A stretch of 64,000 nt of DNA from Candidatus Bathyarchaeota archaeon (GTDB taxonomy: Archaea > Thermoproteota > Bathyarchaeia > Bathyarchaeales > Bathycorpusculaceae), in contig CAWDYC010000003.1 of the NCBI GenBank assembly GCA_963806535.1, forward strand, positions 256,001 through 320,000, in the 5' to 3' direction. Of this stretch, positions 6,255-60,380 are shown piece by piece. The stretch's first letter is position 1, and each line of letters opens with the position of its first letter. The position numbers were made by a program, and so were the translations under genes. Under the pieces are notes generated by a model. That model was not told the DNA's origin. It saw only the letters and a program-made list of their open reading frames with translations, and did no database searches.

Positions 6255-6690
6255 CGGAATCATCCTCTTCTGAGCTTGGCTCGCTTGGTGCCTGTGGTTC
6301 GTTGGGTCCTTCAGGGGCAACAGGAGCAGTAGCAATGGCTTCTTTTCCTAAGCCAAGTATCCAATCGGTAAGTTTCGGGCAGCTTTTTGGAGAAAGCGCG
6401 GTTGTTGGATCACATCTTGCATTGTCCGGACAAAGTAGACAAGGGCAATCAATTATGGTCTCTATTGAAGCAGGAAGCCTTTTTGGATAAAGTCGGTAGG
6501 TCCATCTACCTTCTTGTAATTCTTTTTCTCGACGGATTAACCCTTTTTCTTCTAATTTAATTGAGACACGTGAGCCTTCTCGGCTGCTTGCCCCGAGTTC
6601 ACGCCATAAATCTGATTGGAGCACGCCTTGATAACCCGTATTTACCACATAATGGAGTGCTTTCTGTTCAAGGTCATTACGTTTAGGCAT
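6229..6690 (-). CDS. tfeB: Transcription factor E beta (RPC34-like: winged helix plus Fe-S domain)
   Basis: GVLQSDLW...RWTY winged helix followed by PCLLCP....C...SP..C..L..W cluster motif. Confidence 0.8.
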   Translation of the reverse strand: MPKRNDLEQKALHYVVNTGYQGVLQSDLWRELGASSREGSRVSIKLEEKGLIRREKELQEGRWTYRLYPKRLPASIETIIDCPCLLCPDNARCDPTTALSPKSCPKLTDWILGLGKEAIATAPVAPEGPNEPQAPSEPSSEEDDSVAESLDPR

Positions 6691-6841
6691 CTAATATCAA
6701 TTCCAGATAATACAATTAGAATATAAGCGTTGAATTCAAATAAAAATATGTTTCCTTAGCTGTAGCTGTAGATATATCATCAATTGACCCAGAATTCACA
6801 AAGCCTTTAAGTTTTGAGGGGGGAACTAACTTTTGAGCGAT

Positions 6842-8142
6842 TTGACAGTAAAGACCGAAAAAGACTTGCTGGAATTCGAAAGCGGTAGAAACTGGAAACC
6901 ACATTTACACAGCGAACACACTAAGCGGATTTTCTTTAGGCATTTAGAAAAATATTCGCAATGGGCAAAATGAATCCTGACGAATTGATAAATTTTAAGA
7001 TTGAAGGTTTGAAAGCTGTAGCTACAGAAAAAGAGTTTCAAGCTGAACGGCTATTAGAAAAATATCTGAGAGAATCAGGTATGACTCAATCTGTACAGTT
7101 TGAAGCTAAGAACGCCATAATCAGCTTTTACAAGCATAATTGGCGAAACCTTAACCCTGAATGCGCTAAAGACGTTGAACCACAAGAAGCAAAGATAAGA
7201 ACCCCAAAAATAGAAGATATTCAACTGCTTGAAAGCAACTGCACAACTGCAAGAGATAGAGCATTGACTTGGTTTTTCCCATCAACCAGTTTTAGAGTAG
7301 GAACATTAACCAAGTTGCTGAGAAGTGACCTAAAGCCAACAGGTGACAGCGAAGTTCCTTATTATTTGGAGATTGAAGCTAAGCGGCTTAAAGGTTCTGG
7401 AATCGGCAAATACAAAGGTTTGAAACAAATTACTTTCGTTAACAGCTTTGTTTGGGCTAAAATGATTGATTACTTCGCTGAAGCTGAAAGAAGAGGTTTC
7501 CATCTGATTGAGGATTCACCGCTTTTCATAGGGTACAAAGGTCACTTTACTAAAGAAGAAAGAAAACTTGCAGTTAAACCCAAAAAGGTTAAGGCAATCA
7601 CTGAAGGCGCAATCAATAACACTTATGACAATGCATCGCTTGCAGCATGGAAAGATTTAGAGGAAAAACGCTTTTCTCCACATGACAACCGTGATGTACT
7701 ACAGAATGCTTTAGAAAATGCCAATGTCAACGCTAACATGATAGCTCCAATGCTAGGGCACAAACCTAAAAACGCTGTAGACTTCCATTATTCAAGTCAC
7801 TTATGGCAAGAATTGCTTTTAAAGTATAAACAAGCCTTGCCTTATTTACTGCCTATAACAGTTGAAAAAGTTAAAGCTGAATTAAACGACACAGAAACCG
7901 AATTACATCAAACCAAAAAAGAATTAACCGAAACAAAAGAAGAAGGCAAAAATCAGCAAAATAAAATTAATGCTTTAGAGTCAATTATACTTATGACTAT
8001 GCCCAGAGAACAATTAGAACAATTAGTTAAGGCAAAACTTGAAGCAATGCCAAAATCGGATATATGCATGGCTGTTGAAGAAGGCAAACCACTAAGCGAA
8101 TTAACAAGAGAAGAATTAATTGAAATATACCATAAACTATAA
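6842..8142 (+). CDS. Tyrosine recombinase/integrase with C-terminal coiled coil (frameshift near 6968)
   Basis: Catalytic R (SFRVG), HxxR (HDNR), LGH, Y (FHYS); upstream frame from TTG 6842 (MTVKTEKDLLEF...) joins at an A run. Confidence 0.88.
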
Positions 8143-11729: not shown

Positions 11730-12845
11730 TTGGAAACAACCAAAAAAGAAACGGGAAATTCAGATTCAGGGTTTAGACCTGACTCTGACAAATTAGATTA
11801 CAAAACGTTGGTAAAAAAAATTCAAGAAAACGGCGACCTTGTTATTTTAGGTCAAAAAGGTACGTGTAAAACTACGTTACTGCAACATCTAAGCAGAGAA
11901 CTTAGAACCGAAAACAACAATCACGTTATAATATTTGAAACCTTTCCGAAATGGATTCATGAATTCGATTCTATACCCTACATGATAATAAAAGACAGCG
12001 ACGTACAATCAACGGAAAACACGCCTTATCTGGAAGAAGACAAAAGCATTATTCAATGGTCAAAGGATTTCAAAGTTTTAAACGCAGAAATTGTTAAAGA
12101 TTTCTTGAAGCAAAACAAAGATTGCATATTCTTAATCGAAGTCGAAGACATGGAGCGAATAAGCGCATTCATGACGTTTGTTATTTATACAATCTACCGT
12201 AAACAATACCTCAGAGCTAAAGCTGGAAACTTGGAGACAGTTAACCAAAATTATTGGTTTCTCTGTGAAGAAGCCCATAACTTAATGGATTCAACGGTTT
12301 TAGCCAAAAAAACCTTTAACAAATTGCGAAAGATACAAAATGAATTCCGAAACCTGAAAATGCATTTAATTTGCGTAGCTTTGAGACTCCAAGATTTAAG
12401 CCCAAAAATAAGGAGCAAAATGTCTATCGTGTTAAGCAGAGTTAGCCTTGACGACTATCAATTAAAAGTTAGAAGCCTACTGAGAAATTCAAAGTTTAGA
12501 GACATAATTACAGAACTGCCAAAAGGTCAATTTATTTACCCTGAACTTGACCTTAAACTGACTACAGAACCGTTTAAGCAAATTGGCACACCAACCGAAT
12601 TTAAGCCAAAACCTACAGAGAAACCAAAAGAGCAATTCGTGGATGCATGGAAACCACAAATAAGGAAATTTAACCCAATCCAGAAAATTTTAAGGAAAAT
12701 ATTTTTCTGGCTACCAGATAGCAATAGTAATTATACAACAAATGACGGTGAAACTACAACAGAAGATAACAGCAAAGAAGATAGCCAAGGTGACGGATTA
12801 ATGACCTTAGATAATGGAGAAGAATTGTTTCCAGAAGAACCCTAA
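11730..12845 (+). CDS. FtsK/HerA-superfamily P-loop ATPase
   Basis: Walker A GQKGTCKT, Walker B FLCEEAH, EFRN, LRLQDLSPKIRS; acidic tail. Confidence 0.78.
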   Translation: METTKKETGNSDSGFRPDSDKLDYKTLVKKIQENGDLVILGQKGTCKTTLLQHLSRELRTENNNHVIIFETFPKWIHEFDSIPYMIIKDSDVQSTENTPYLEEDKSIIQWSKDFKVLNAEIVKDFLKQNKDCIFLIEVEDMERISAFMTFVIYTIYRKQYLRAKAGNLETVNQNYWFLCEEAHNLMDSTVLAKKTFNKLRKIQNEFRNLKMHLICVALRLQDLSPKIRSKMSIVLSRVSLDDYQLKVRSLLRNSKFRDIITELPKGQFIYPELDLKLTTEPFKQIGTPTEFKPKPTEKPKEQFVDAWKPQIRKFNPIQKILRKIFFWLPDSNSNYTTNDGETTTEDNSKEDSQGDGLMTLDNGEELFPEEP

Positions 12846-12936
12846 AGTTTTTTAAAATAAATTATTAAAAATTGGAGAATAGAAAATATGAGCAACCAAG
12901 AAATAGCCGAAAAGCGATTTATCTACAGTTGTAGAG

Positions 12937-14010
12937 ATGGATACAAATATGTATCCCCCAGAAAAATTGGAATCCATGAAAAACATGCCGAAAAGAAGCA
13001 AAGAAGATGGCAGTTACTGTTTAGGGATAGAATCTTCAGCAGACGATTTCGGTGTCGGTATAGCTACTTTCAATGGAGAAATTCTTGCCAACAAATACGA
13101 CAGCTACATACCAGTTGAAGGCGGAATTCACCCAAGAGAAGCAGCAAGACACCACTCGGAAGTTGCGGACAAAGTGCTAAAAGAAGCTCTGAGTTTTGCA
13201 GGTGTAAAACCAAACGACCTATCGGTTATAGCGTTTTCGCAAGGTCCAGGCTTAGGGCCTTCTTTACGTACGGGAGCCACTGTTGCCCGAGCTTTAGCTT
13301 CTTACCTAAACATCCCGCTTGTAGGAGTAAATCATTCTGTAGCGCATATTGAGATTGGAAAACTAAAAACTGGCGTTGTTGACCCTGTAACCCTTTATGT
13401 TTCAGGAGGCAACACCATGGTTACAGCTTTTGAAGCTGGACGATACAGAGTTTTCGGAGAAACCTTAGACATCGCCCTTGGAAATTGTCTTGACGTTTTC
13501 GCTCGCGAAGCAGGTTTAAAGCATCAAAAAGGTGTACCACTTGGGGCTGCCGTTGAGAGGTTAGCGGCTAAAGGAAAAAATCTGGTTTCTTTGCCTTATG
13601 TTGTTAAAGGTATGGATTTGTCTCTTAGCGGCTTGTTAACATCGGCGACAGCTCAATTGAAAAGTGGAAATTGCTGCTTAGAAGATTTGTGTTACAGTCT
13701 TCAGGAGCATGCTTTCTCAATGGTTACTGAAGTTACTGAGCGAGCGTTAGCACATACAGAAAAGAGAGAGGTTTTGCTAACAGGCGGCGTAGCAGCCAAC
13801 AAGAGATTACAAAATATGCTTCAAATAATCGCCGAAGAACATGATGCCCGTTTCAATGTGGTTCCACTTGAGTTTGCCACCGACAACGGCGCCATGATTG
13901 CCTGGACAGGCGTTTTAGCTTACAAACATGGTTTGGTTACACCGTTGGATACGAGTTATGTGAAGCTTCGGTGGCGAGTTGACAAGGTGGATGTGCCATG
14001 GATAAATTAG
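12937..14010 (+). CDS. kae1: KEOPS subunit Kae1 (t6A synthesis)
   Basis: GIESSAD, GGIHPREAA, HSVAH, YVSGGNT, DNGAMIA. Confidence 0.97.
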   Translation: MDTNMYPPEKLESMKNMPKRSKEDGSYCLGIESSADDFGVGIATFNGEILANKYDSYIPVEGGIHPREAARHHSEVADKVLKEALSFAGVKPNDLSVIAFSQGPGLGPSLRTGATVARALASYLNIPLVGVNHSVAHIEIGKLKTGVVDPVTLYVSGGNTMVTAFEAGRYRVFGETLDIALGNCLDVFAREAGLKHQKGVPLGAAVERLAAKGKNLVSLPYVVKGMDLSLSGLLTSATAQLKSGNCCLEDLCYSLQEHAFSMVTEVTERALAHTEKREVLLTGGVAANKRLQNMLQIIAEEHDARFNVVPLEFATDNGAMIAWTGVLAYKHGLVTPLDTSYVKLRWRVDKVDVPWIN

Positions 14011-18162: not shown

Positions 18163-18169
18163 CTAAACT

Positions 18170-18320
18170 GGAAAAGAAGAAGAAGTGTGCCCCCACAGCT
18201 TTTCTTCTTCTTTCTGAAGCAGAGAAGAAGTAGAACGCGGTGCTACTGCCAACTGTCCTTCTTCTTCTATCAAAGAAGAACAACACCCGATGCAACCACC
18301 AACCGTTGGCGTTCTTCCAG
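18170..18320. repeat. Array of three GAAGAA...TTCTTC hairpins (~50-nt period)
   Basis: Units about 18170-18218, 18221-18269, 18275-18317; first unit matches 48673-48717 inverted. Confidence 0.8.
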
Positions 18321-48374: not shown

Positions 48375-48518
48375 TTTCACGGAATCAAAATGTTTCTAAA
48401 TGAGACAACATCTTTTTTTCACTTTCAGTCATGTCTCTGCTGTTCTAAACATTTGTTTCTTCACTTGATTCTTAAGCATCCTCGAACTATAGGGGCGAGT
48501 TCTAGAGGGATTTTACAG

Positions 48519-48993
48519 TTGACGAAAGGTAAGCCTTGGCCCATTGAAGACGAAAAACAGTTGACCGATTGGTTCAATTCGAGCACTAAAGATCTTCGAG
48601 TGCTTGCTTTCTCTTTTGATGGCAAATACAGCGAGAATGCTATTTATCAGAAACTTTTGGATTTAGGACTTATTCAGAAAGAAGAAGAAACTCGGGGGGA
48701 GCACACTTCTTCTTCTTCTACTACTACTACTGGTTTTACTTCTTCTAAGCTTGAGTTGCCGGAGGAGCTTCCGAGTGTTGAAGAGACGCTTAAAACTTGC
48801 GGCTGCATTAGAGGCATTGAAGGCCTCAGGACTCAAAAGAGACGATATTTTACGTTTGCGAGGCATTATTTCGGGTACCAAAATCTACCAGGAACTATTA
48901 GCAGACTACATTAACTATCGGGCGCTTGAAGCTGAACTTTTAGATTGGAGACGTAAATATGAGGAGCTTGCGAAGAAATCCACGGACAGTTGA
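48519..48993 (+). CDS. HTH plus coiled-coil protein, putative terminase small-subunit-like (frameshift near 48797)
   Basis: MTKGKPWPIEDEKQL Myb/GcrA-like HTH; EEE...SSSS linker; helical C-terminus; overlaps terL start. Confidence 0.65.
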
Positions 48994-50409
48994 GGCTAAA
49001 ACTTTTAGGCCTAATCGATTGTTCCTTGAACGCGATCGATTACGCAAAGACATTGAAACAGTCGAAATCGCTGCTAAACTGAGAACTAAGGCTGAAACAA
49101 GTGACCCTTACAAATTTTTGCTTGATTACTGCAAACTAAAACCCTACAAGCATACACTTGAAATTGCCAAATTGTATTTTCAACATCAATTCTTGGCTGT
49201 CTGTTTGCCTCGGCAAACGGGAAAGAGTACCACAATAGGTGCTTTGATTTTGCAGGATGCATGGGAACACAATAACCTTACATCGGACTTATCGGGCCTA
49301 GCTGGCGACAGACAAAACTAAATCTGCTCAGAGTGGCTAACTTTTGCCGTAATCTCCCCCGACAGGGAATGCATATTCAAAGAACAAGAATAACCCTCCA
49401 AAACGGCAGCGTGATCGAGGCTTTCCCCAACAACGCCGATACAATAAGGGGCAACACTTTTGACAGGCTCTGGTGGGACGAAACCAACTTCACACCCAAC
49501 GACGAAGACTTGTATGACGCCATCTTGTTTACAATGAGCACCAAAAAAGACGCCAAATTAATTGCAACTAGCACGCCTTTCAACACCGATTCCCTGTTTT
49601 GGAAAATGTGTAACCACGAAGACTTTTCTGATTTTGGACGCTACCACATCTCTTGGGAACAGGCACTTGAACCCAACGGTCCGTTAAGCACAACAATAAT
49701 TGAGAAGATTAGGAGGCAGTTTGGTAATGACTCAACTAGGTGGCGTCGTGAGATGGAGGCTGAATGGGCAGAAGACGAAGATGTGTGGCTTGCCCAAAGT
49801 CTCATCGTCAGTTGCATAGATAGCTCACTTTTGCCTTATGACTTCCAGACCCAACCGCCATTTGGCGAATTTTTCATTGGCGTCGATTTTGGGAAGGAAC
49901 GAGATTACAGCATTGTGGTAGTACTAGAAAAGATAGGTTTCGTTTTGCGAGTGGTTCATGTCCACCGTTTTCCATTGCATTCAGAGTACGCAAGTGTCAT
50001 TGGATACGTCAAGAGCTTACAGGACCGTTGGAACAGCATTCACTCGGTCTACGCAGACGTAACAGGAGTAGGAAACTATATTGTTGAGGATATGTTCCGC
50101 AGTGGCATTCCCAATGTAATTGGTACAAACTTTACAGTCCAGTCTAAAGAAGAAATGGCAAATATCCTCAGGGAAAAGATGCGAGCTGGTGAACTAAAAA
50201 TTCCATATATCCCTACCCGAAAAATAGGAGACATTGACCTTACAGTTGAGTTAAATGTTGAAAAATATGAGCTTATGAAAACAGGGCACTTAGGATTTAG
50301 TCATCCCGAAGGCACTCACGATGATGTATTTTGGAGTACAGCACTTGCGGTTCTAGGTTCGGTTAGAACACCCATGCCAGGTAAAGGTGTTGGTTTTGTT
50401 TCGCATTAG
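48959..50409 (+). CDS. Terminase large-subunit-like ATPase-nuclease (frameshift near 49280)
   Basis: PRQTGKST, IRG, LWWDE, STP, GVDFG, DVTGVG, HDD. Confidence 0.9.
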
Positions 50410-50594: not shown

Positions 50595-50862
50595 TTACTC
50601 GTATGCTTTTTCACGCGTCGAAATGGAGTAAATAACTATTGTTTGATCTGTTGACAGCTCAAATAGTATTCTTACAGTTTTTCCTATTCTGATACGATAA
50701 TGGTTTTGATATCCATGCAGTTTCTTGATGTCTATTCTTGTTGAAAGACCCTCATCCTCTAAAGTTTTTAGAGCTATCATTATCCTATCCTGATTTTCTT
50801 TCGGAAAATTTTTTGAACTGCTTTTTAGCTTTGCTTTCTACAAAAACCAAATACTTGGGCAA
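50595..50862 (-). CDS. RelE/ParE-family toxin (frameshifted)
   Basis: IKKLHG...YRIRIG..RILF...REKAY. Confidence 0.88.
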
Positions 50863-52680: not shown

Positions 52681-53046
52681 CTATAGGTCGTTAAGAATTT
52701 TTTTGAATTGCTGCTGCAAATTTGGTAAATCGGTTATTGCCGTGTTCCACATAGAAGGCCAATCTGCACTAAAGTATTCATGAGTGAGTTCATGTCTCAT
52801 TCCGCATAGTTTTTCATAAGGTATATGATAGTAATAGAATAGCTCCTTCACTTTTTTGTTTTTTGAAACTGCCCAGACAGCTTCAGAAATATCTCGCAAA
52901 ACATCCTTCAATGCATGCATTCTTATTTTTTGTTGAATAAACGCCTCATACGTTAATCCATATGTTATTTCTTTTAGGTCATCGATGTACTCTAGAATTT
53001 CTTTAACGTATAATTTAGGATCTCTGCGTTCCAAATTTTTCGTCAT
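52681..53046 (-). CDS. HEPN RNase toxin (DUF86/HepT)
   Basis: RxxxxH motif MRHELTHEY. Confidence 0.88.
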   Translation of the reverse strand: MTKNLERRDPKLYVKEILEYIDDLKEITYGLTYEAFIQQKIRMHALKDVLRDISEAVWAVSKNKKVKELFYYYHIPYEKLCGMRHELTHEYFSADWPSMWNTAITDLPNLQQQFKKILNDL

Positions 53047-53357
53047 ACGTTAACAGCTTCTTTTAAAACCTGATCTCTTATGTGCTTATTCAGAAATTCT
53101 TTTGAAATTACATCTACTTTCAGATGTAGCTTTCGCTTAAGATACTGTTTTAAGTCATAAATCGTGAAAAGGCTAACAGCTGCCGAATACGTAACCAAAA
53201 TATCCAAGTCACTCTCCTCCGTTTGTTCTTTTCTGGCAAAGGAACCAAAAATATCAATGGTTTCAATGCTGAACCTTTTCTTCAAAGTAGGCTTCAGTGC
53301 TTCAAGTTGCAATTTGACTTCTTCCAGTGACTTTACTTCAAAGGTCTTTTGAACCAA
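53043..53357 (-). CDS. Minimal nucleotidyltransferase antitoxin (MntA-like)
   Basis: FGSFAR.EQ...SDLDILV. Confidence 0.9.
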   Translation of the reverse strand: MVQKTFEVKSLEEVKLQLEALKPTLKKRFSIETIDIFGSFARKEQTEESDLDILVTYSAAVSLFTIYDLKQYLKRKLHLKVDVISKEFLNKHIRDQVLKEAVNV

Positions 53358-60304: not shown

Positions 60305-60380
60305 CGGGCCCGCTGGGATTTGAACCCAGGATTCTCGGCTCCGGAGGCCGATGCCTTAATCCGTGCTAGACTACGAGCCC
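60305..60380 (-). tRNA. tRNA-Arg(CCG)
   Basis: GGGCTCG/CGGGCCC acceptor stem, TCGGC-CTCCGGA-GCCGA anticodon arm, GGTTCAAATCC T arm; CCA not encoded. Confidence 0.95.

Follow-up and report, generated by a model that had tools for sequence, protein, structure and literature searches.

The window analysed here is a 64,000-nt stretch of a Candidatus Bathyarchaeota archaeon genome (contig CAWDYC010000003.1, positions 256,001 to 320,000). On its + strand it carries a gene that we call terS-like (48519–48993, TTG start at 48519 and TGA at 48993), which encodes a predicted helix-turn-helix (HTH), a linker and a long-helix domain. The end of this gene is overlapped by the gene for the terminase large subunit, TerL, which is split between frames (break at 49322–49333) into an N-terminal fragment at 48959–49321 (+; phrog_38 and phrog_2, E 5e-4 to 7e-4) and a C-terminal fragment at 49333–50409 (+; Terminase_6N, 6e-8; Terminase_6C, 1.3e-6; phrog_2, 1.9e-27). 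Within the linker-coding part of the terS-like gene lies a hairpin with arms of 11 nt each, 100% complementary, 17 nt apart and in the frame of the open reading frame (ORF) 48390–48914. The 5′ arm (48679–48689, +, AAGAAGAAGAA) encodes K-E-E-E and the 3′ arm (48707–48717, +, TTCTTCTTCTT) encodes S-S-S-S; the 17-nt loop between them (48690–48706, +) has a G run and then AGCACAC. The comparative sequence evidence given below firmly supports a conserved stem-loop that is laid over the linker codons and is selected as nucleic acid, not as peptide.

The first-pass annotation of this DNA had singled out complementary arms beneath an EEE...SSSS peptide, followed by an (ACT)n run. Both were recovered, the arms as the perfect 11-mers just described and the run as (ACT)4 at 48721–48732 (+), which encodes TTTT. 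A partial second copy of the 3′ arm follows at 48736–48746 (+, TTACTTCTTCT), and the whole of 48721–48746 is a low-complexity linker extension that is lineage-specific, being common only to the closest homologues. Folded as a single sequence, the window hairpin stands out clearly as DNA but only moderately as RNA. Folding of 51 nt as RNA gave -14.2 kcal/mol (z -2.2), with 4 of 200 shuffles equal or better, and the 91-nt span proposed earlier gave z -1.05, with 33 of 200 shuffles equal or better. As DNA the + strand folded at -7.7 kcal/mol (z -3.7) and the - strand at -9.9 kcal/mol (z -5.5), and none of 200 shuffles equalled either value. A second hairpin that had been placed upstream of the gene, at about 48480–48508, fared less well: its letters are present, but its fold (-8.2 kcal/mol, where the shuffles average -9.0; z +0.35; 117 of 200 shuffles equal or better) is no better than chance. 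Among six aligned relatives it is kept only in L008, by plain similarity and without compensatory change (L numbers denote homologous loci, G000 the window's own genome and other G numbers its relatives).

Relative to its homologues the window gene lacks 2 nt near 48790–48797, where they read …LKTLAAAL… and the window reads …LK-LAAAL…, and its frame is broken. Read-through of the break by a one-step code, used for searching only, gave a 157-aa protein that matches homologues of about 150 aa end to end. A word-indexed protein search returned 283 proteins at E ≤ 0.01 among 719 candidates (86–275 aa), and these lie on contigs of up to 3.3 Mb. In a one-genome-per-species scan the best 80 of 124 relatives were retained; their sources are nearly all metagenome-assembled genomes (MAGs) titled Bathyarchaeota or Bathyarchaeia, with at most 11 loci per assembly. 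IMG/VR contributed 48 loci. The total of 128 loci gave 107 full-length genes, of which 102 were distinct as DNA and 100 had linkers that could be anchored on a PxxLPS motif (the motif is missing from L029 and L103, which were excluded from the linker set). A stem was counted when the 32 codons preceding PxxLPS could form 8 or more Watson-Crick pairs with no more than one internal mismatch. Note that L004 and L025 are contigs with the Bathyarchaeia-virus gene pair that are titled as bacterial MAGs (Acidoferrum and Limnocylindrales); these titles are probably binning errors.

A stem of this kind lies at the same linker codons in 87 of the 100 distinct genes and is free of internal mismatches in 69 of the 87, the stem length having its mode at 11–12 pairs and its maximum at 17. 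Control windows of the same size in the same genes reached 8 pairs in 2 of 100 cases (N-terminal) and 7 of 100 cases (C-terminal), and codon-shuffled linkers did so in 36 of 500. The first-pass annotation had named homologous linkers devoid of self-complementarity as the outcome that would sink its proposal; such linkers are the minority. It had also put forward bathyarchaeal linkers of the form VVV...TTT, and these exist: L037 and L038 read EVVVASEQRPTTTT, with arms AGTTGTTGTTG and CAACAACAACT. Of the 13 genes that fell short, three have the same stem at 7 pairs (L058, L061 and L117), two (L019 and L032) have apparently decayed, and the remaining eight form a clade (L072, L075, L076, L078–L081 and L083) with short, unrelated linkers; in an unrooted quick maximum-likelihood tree built with the linker excluded, this clade falls among sequences that have the hairpin. 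The span of the hairpin varies from 31 to 49 nt, most commonly 40 or 37, and is always 1 modulo 3, so that the frame relation is fixed. The loop is 12–30 nt long across homologues; it has an A run of at least 5 in 47 of the 87, and other loop groups have AGCAC or AAGGGGTATA motifs.

The arms differ by lineage. GAA/TTC arms encode EEE/SSS, CAA/TTG arms QQQ/CCC, GTA/TAC and GTT/AAC arms VVV/TTT, and GAT/ATC arms DDD/SSS; mixed arms occur in mirror order (EVVE…STTS, EEQQ…CCSS), and mixed arms that are not repetitive (GAAGATAATG, GAAGAAGTGC, GAAGTAGTCGAC) are still complementary. In a base-anchored register, a rule of our own whose 87 rows were preselected for carrying the stem, positions 0–10 were 87–100% Watson-Crick, each with at least two pair types, and parsimony on the tree gave 95 changes between Watson-Crick pair types. 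Permuting the 3′ arms of the 67 distinct arm pairs (2000 permutations) lowered pairing from 0.918 to 0.603, with a maximum of 0.658, and sliding the arms by 1–2 nt left pairing of 0.22–0.28. An ungapped alignment of 17 sequences, taken from 20 of equal length after L037, L119 and L120 were dropped because MAFFT gapped them, was 97.9% paired; 10 of its 11 pairs had changed on both sides and none on one side only, and none of 500 shuffles scored as high. A covariance-model search was made over 98 sources, the window plus 97 loci (31 of the 128 loci were omitted, mostly near-duplicates), and the window terS hairpin was matched at 48678–48718 with E 9.5e-5. The structure-fitted alignment of the 123 hits, with both strands counted, was 97.9% paired versus 75.6% when shuffled, and had 203 double-change cells versus 5 one-side cells. 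RNAalifold predicted no pairs from a plain MAFFT alignment of 60 hairpin regions, the triplet-repeat arms having been put out of register by MAFFT.

Codon choice in the arms departs from that elsewhere in the same genes. Glu is encoded by GAA in 120 of 120 arm codons versus 591 of 1355 (44%) elsewhere, Gln by CAA in 58 of 58 versus 164 of 383, Ser by TCT in 132 of 141 versus 100 of 592, and Cys by TGT in 86 of 87 versus 19 of 52. The wobble bases of Val and Thr codons co-vary (GTA/ACT, GTT/ACA, GTC/ACG). As the arms vary yet stay complementary, change on both sides and have their synonymous codons fixed, selection is on the nucleic acid. That selection acts on nucleic-acid structure rather than on the peptide had been proposed in the first-pass annotation, and the compensatory arm changes and the fixed or co-varying synonymous sites bear it out; the search for compensatory change that it recommended returned arms that rewrite both peptide runs (E/S, Q/C, V/T and D/S). 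Pairing dictates the peptide, a 5′-arm codon N1N2N3 forcing the codon opposite it in the 3′ arm and giving the couples Glu-Ser, Gln-Cys, Val-Thr and Asp-Ser. The converse, that an acidic run plus a Ser-rich flexible linker is selected as peptide and that complementarity is a coincidence of codon choice, has virtually no probability left. The region is indeed a disordered linker, and E, K and S are common in linkers of that sort, but this reading is already contradicted by the codon shuffles, of which only the 36 in 500 reach 8 pairs, and by the fixation of synonymous codons to the pairing ones. Moreover, wherever E is replaced by Q, S is replaced by C, and wherever E is replaced by V, S is replaced by T, the order being mirrored. 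The hairpin is an unusually clean natural case of nucleic-acid structure dictating protein sequence, and the exchange of Glu/Ser for Gln/Cys, Val/Thr or Asp/Ser could serve as a benchmark for methods that separate coding from structural constraint.

The helices of structured RNAs usually drift by A-U/G-C exchange via wobble pairs. The 18 internal mismatches among the stems comprise seven T.T, six A.C, one C.A, three A.A and one G.A, with no G.T, and GAG, which would wobble-pair, accounts for 0 of the 120 arm Glu codons. Arm positions keep their strong or weak class in a pattern A-(SWW)n; swaps of G-C with C-G and of A-T with T-A are frequent, and those of A-T with G-C are nearly absent. A helix kept via G-U intermediates, as expected of a structured RNA, was therefore not what we found. 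A scan of the window with Rfam 15 at the gathering threshold gave only a tRNA-Arg at 60305–60380 and no family for the hairpin. Copies of the hairpin type on the host chromosome (below) lie in either orientation, without conserved flanks able to hold a promoter. Because the near-absence of wobble and the class-keeping swaps are unlike the usual drift of RNA helices, we favour a DNA-level element over an RNA. The variable span (31–49 nt) argues against a rigid dimer bound to a double-stranded palindrome, and a fold on single-stranded DNA seems the simplest form.

An RNA hairpin, in the mRNA or antisense to it, might instead serve autoregulation by the TerS-like protein, set the TerS:TerL ratio as a pause or processing site, or act as a stabiliser. 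We consider this quite improbable. The window stem is stable at its -14.2 kcal/mol, the gene that holds it is transcribed, with the TerL start about 260 nt further on, and the seven A.C mismatches, which would be G.U in an antisense RNA, stand against no G.T. The TerS of phage SPP1 reportedly represses its own synthesis. However, those A.C cases are few and come partly from related sequences, and wobble is otherwise unused, as the 5 one-side versus 203 double-change cells and the lack of GAG attest. A-U/G-C exchanges and an Rfam match are both missing, and the host copies are intergenic and stand in both orientations, 5 of the 17 having divergent genes on either side.

AlphaFold2 modelling of an intact homologue (mean predicted local distance difference test score, pLDDT, of 79) predicts a three-helix N domain, a disordered linker, and a short and then a very long helix, with helices at residues 9–20, 26–32, 39–48, 78–92 and 99–148. 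The predicted disordered stretch, 49–77, holds the hairpin-coded residues, and pLDDT drops below 50 at 54–65; the model thus agrees with the earlier placement of the hairpin between the HTH and the helical domain. The modelled N domain resembles the GcrA DNA-binding and SANT domains (template modelling score, normalized to target, of 0.79–0.85 over 46–50 residues). No Pfam or PHROG family matched either half of the window gene at E up to 1, nor the intact protein of L097, and a Foldseek search of the PDB with the whole model yielded nothing at E ≤ 0.001; the G20C small terminase came up at E 0.48, which is not significant. Given these null results, 'terS-like' is a statement of gene position and architecture only. 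In seven loci (L057, L060, L062, L065, L069, L073 and L082) the match to the family begins at profile position ~38–49 and the N-termini do not match it; the DNA-binding domain may have been exchanged in these variants.

Among the morphogenesis genes of head-tailed (pro)viruses of Bathyarchaeia, the terS-like gene stands immediately before TerL, where a small terminase gene is expected. In L084, L097 and L099 the terS-like gene overlaps the TerL start by 38–44 nt, and in L097 and L099 it is preceded by scaffold, major head, neck and tail genes, including that for the tape measure. Six IMG/VR records (L086, L089, L093, L100, L101 and L119) end ~2.87 kb past the terS-like gene; in L097, whose record continues, the same point is the end of an ABC-ATPase-like gene (11871–13313) after TerL, and this common endpoint is probably a border set by provirus prediction and not the end of a genome.

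Phages P22 and P1 have their pac sites inside terS genes. In the hairpin we see a DNA-level, putative pac-like cis site for packaging, a reading that may well be right although we would not call it probable. It is based on a hairpin that is kept beside TerL, once per viral locus, in the gene for a putative DNA-binding protein, and on the phage precedent of pac within terS. We infer that the hairpin acts as DNA, that the TerS-like protein or TerL is its reader, and that its role is in packaging. On separated strands it would fold and give the packaging proteins, TerS-like protein and TerL together, a cis site for engaging the concatemer; pac-like, this site would lie within the gene for its own reader. 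The location expected of a pac site, in or next to terS and one per viral genome, is the location found. Copies of the arm 11-mer (at most 1 mismatch) elsewhere in the locus number 0.34 per locus versus 0.29 for foreign arms, which is no enrichment, and multiple binding boxes in the viral loci were accordingly dropped as a candidate.

In phage SPP1, pac overlaps gene 1 where it codes for the DNA-binding domain of TerS, and TerS binds on both sides (pacL and pacR) while TerL cuts between them (PMC6316719). Here too the putative signal is in the small-terminase-like gene, and two arms flank a loop, with an A run in 47 of 87, before TerL. The SPP1 site differs in being duplex DNA with asymmetric boxes, and the part of that article available describes no compensatory hairpin (PMC6316719). 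In our case the two sides are strictly complementary and the sequence drifts freely; for the protein of the putative site, homology to known TerS proteins was not detected.

Hairpins of this type are not restricted to terS-like genes. G000 has 111 perfect hairpins (at least 10 bp, loops of 8–32 nt), 22 of which have arms of the periodic type, and most of the latter belong to a ~145-nt repeat in which three hairpins follow one another, with AGAAG…CTTCT-type arms and loops that share a …TGG…AGCAC… motif. The repeat is present in 17 copies in G000, including partial ones, all intergenic, in either orientation and without conserved flanks; 5 of the 17 lie between divergent ORFs and none is spanned by an ORF of at least 80 aa. 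One copy lies in the window, in an intergenic spacer on the - strand (18168–18310, with covariance-model matches at 18173–18213 and 18224–18267), and another is at C4:315282–315424 of G000. Between the window terS hairpin and repeat hairpin 3 the match is 86.7–89% over 45 nt, and it extends through the loop and into 6 nt of flank. Among 88 terS hairpins that of the window is the closest to hairpin 3 (33/41), that of L008 to hairpin 1 (38/46), and that of L025, barely ahead of others, to hairpin 2 (32/44). A DNA similarity search of 31 relatives recovered the repeat from five, all in one genus, with 12 matches in G009 and 7 in G013. Repeat numbers do not track resident terS-like genes: G013 has none, and G014 has seven but few stand-alone hairpins. 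A search of 301 genomes of the class with the pattern AGAAGAAGAAGN{10,26}CTTCTTCTTCT matched one genome and missed G000, and is thus too strict to inform on distribution.

Arrays and insertions were seen as well. L023 has at 6370–6900 a non-coding array of at least six hairpins of mixed arm types (Q, EVV, E, Q, E/K, EED), 60–130 nt apart and without ORFs between them; the terS-like gene next to this array has no TerL after it. In run X2 one contig has the hairpin with foreign flanks and then the start of a Q-type arm. In the genes of L063 and L124 an insertion sequence (IS) of the IS110 family (Transposase_20, DEDD_Tnp_IS110) sits at the same point of the 5′ arm (…AAAGAAC | …), at 2781–3998 of L063 (transposase on the - strand, 342 aa) and from 5633 to the contig end in L124. 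Palindromic repeats are known targets of IS110-family elements. L049 (3989–4617) and L071 (3904–4321) have tandem duplications of the middle part of the gene, where the hairpin lies, and three and two covariance-model matches, respectively.

Several of these observations, together with others, weigh against a packaging site. A pac site is expected to be rare in the host, so that abundant host copies count against one, and the hairpin type extends beyond terS to the 17 repeats of G000 and the array of L023; the covariance model also found stand-alone hairpins outside terS in four other searched genomes of the genus. Among the 128 loci no contig ends at the hairpin, except that of L124, which ends inside the inserted IS. 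The clade of eight hairpin-free genes has no hairpin in the gene or within 4 kb. A recognition helix …EEAIRQKLI… occurs with both CAA-type and GTA-type arms, from which it follows that the arms are not read base by base by this HTH, and a one-to-one relation between recognition helix and arm type was sought but not found. With a loop of 12–30 nt, extrusion of a cruciform from duplex DNA is unlikely, so a single-stranded stage must be assumed. Finally, neither sequence nor fold gave homology of the protein to a described TerS family.

The dispersed host copies open another reading: a selfish or neutral palindrome, similar to repetitive extragenic palindromic (REP) sequences or miniature inverted-repeat transposable elements (MITEs), that settled in a permissive linker and is replaced there by new variants through gene conversion with genomic copies, without benefit to the virus. 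It would be one member of a family of mobile or self-propagating palindromes on Bathyarchaeia chromosomes. This reading is the main rival, though in our estimate an unlikely one. The host three-hairpin repeat has what is expected of REPs and MITEs, many short intergenic palindromes that are patchy among relatives, given the 17 copies in G000 without conserved flanks and the 5 of 31 relatives, all in one genus; the orthologous spacer of G003 lacks the repeat. The resemblance of the window hairpin to repeat hairpin 3, loop and flank included, and of L008 to hairpin 1 points the same way, as do close relatives of the window gene that have the same arms with quite different loops, as module replacement would give. 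The IS110 insertions in the arms of L063 and L124 and the tandem hairpin duplications of L049 and L071 are also consistent with it. Against this, the same codons and frame are kept in 87 of 100 genes down to ~40% protein identity despite the forced Cys, Val and Thr runs, viral copies are cleaner (69 of 87 perfect) than host copies (20 of 45), and hairpin-free linkers are only ~5 residues shorter, not shorter by an insert of 37–40 nt. Neither a mobilising enzyme nor terminal repeats with target duplication were found in G000, where a search for an IS110 transposase also came back empty. Its three Y1 transposase genes belong to near-identical copies of a 550-nt IS200-like element (C3:355938–356300, C4:112617–112979 and C8:17991–18353), which was rejected as the mobiliser since its GC-rich end hairpins are unrelated. 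No target duplication was seen for the window repeat, the spacers of G003 and G004 being too divergent for an empty-site comparison to define its ends or a duplication. The selfish origin explains poorly the clean, deep conservation in a virus gene.

The host repeats resemble REPs, their bacterial interspersed mosaic elements (BIMEs) and MITE-like repeats in being ~40-nt palindromes in twos and threes, many, intergenic, in either orientation, patchy and IS110 targets. They differ in having no associated transposase of the REP-associated tyrosine transposase (RAYT) kind and in their strict A-(SWW)n arms, and we know of no REPs that are conserved in-frame parts of a viral gene. The host hairpin repeats and the IS110 target choice suggest an exchange of structured DNA sites among virus, host and transposon; a narrow check of the literature found no description of such an exchange.

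A mutational by-product without function is very improbable. In this scheme triplet slippage would make the runs and template switching in quasi-palindromes would keep them complementary. The arms are mostly 2–4 copies of one triplet (GAA, CAA, GTA, GTT, GAT), low-complexity expansion occurs nearby, as (ACT)4 in the window and as S/T runs in proteins P0003–P0006, and the hairpin duplications of L049 and L071 are in tandem. However, host copies gather mismatches (25 of 45 are imperfect), which means that self-correction alone does not keep hairpins clean, mixed non-repetitive arms stay complementary, and position and frame relation are fixed across deep divergence.

The hairpin could also take part in some other DNA transaction, as a site of priming or an origin on displaced strands, as a recombination junction by which viruses would exchange the DNA-binding and TerL-binding halves of the gene, or as a Chi-like mark of self that is respected by host nucleases and copied by the virus; we regard this as rather unlikely. 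The signatures that point to DNA would suit it, as would a hairpin type common to host and virus, the position of the hairpin exactly between two domains and the unrelated N-termini joined to a conserved linker and C-terminal half in L057, L060, L062, L065, L073 and L082. A precedent is phage lambda, whose origin lies within gene O, in the part that codes for the linker; the hairpins known as cis-acting replication elements (cre) of picornaviruses likewise lie inside ORFs. These share with our hairpin a nucleic-acid signal over the codons of a tolerant protein segment that constrains the protein. The lambda origin consists of duplex iterons rather than a hairpin, however, and cre is an RNA that uses wobble pairs, whereas our stems are Watson-Crick only and rewrite both peptide runs. 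The N-terminal variants join at 38–49, before the last HTH helix and not at the hairpin, no replication genes are adjacent, and the host copies are tied to no nuclease system. Integron attC sites, which are structure-specific DNA hairpins, resemble ours in keeping their pairing while the sequence varies, in forming arrays and in being targets of the IS110/IS1111 family; the conserved core sites, extrahelical bases and gene cassettes beside an integrase that mark attC were not seen here.

Bathyarchaeia chromosomes might carry libraries of virus-type packaging hairpins, in short intergenic arrays, as decoys that capture viral terminase, either as a defence based on structure or for the packaging and spread of host DNA. 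This is speculative, and rather improbable in our view. Each hairpin of an array would copy the arms and loop of the terS hairpin of a different virus lineage; the idea stems from the likeness of G000 hairpin 1 to L008 and of hairpin 3 to the window terS, and from the mixed array of L023. On that view the many kinds of arm and loop would record an arms race, and its object would be a DNA hairpin that for the virus is coding sequence as well. The repeats of G013, which has no terS-like gene, and the seven terS-like genes of G014, with few stand-alone hairpins, speak against a simple form of it.

The hairpin offers a concrete 40-nt candidate for the site by which uncultivated head-tailed viruses of archaea would select their own genomes for packaging, together with a candidate reader protein. 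A preprint on Bathyarchaeia viruses mentions the large terminase subunit, and no small subunit, hairpin or inverted repeat appears in its main text (bioRxiv 2023.08.24.554615). A narrow check of the literature, which included the available parts of PMC8125051 and PMC6316719, found no description of either the terS hairpin or the host three-hairpin repeat.

The window copy is, by its boundaries, a two-gene remnant, with both the terS-like gene and TerL frame-broken: its upstream neighbour encodes a cellular membrane protein, toxin-antitoxin-like genes lie downstream, and similarity to related loci ends at about 48500 and 50400. No other viral genes were found around the pair. The frame breaks reflect either decay of a provirus remnant or long-read assembly errors. 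No RNA run was listed for this DNA; four DNA contig runs, all of one study and with small shares, leave 48755–48825 uncovered and, being contigs only, show no pile-up of starts or ends. Downstream of the terminase remnant, 50595–50780 (-) has a weak ParE-like match below the cutoff (E 0.003, 17.9 bits versus a cutoff of 24.4), and a HepT/nucleotidyltransferase (MNT) pair is encoded at 52681–53046 (-) and 53043–53357 (-).

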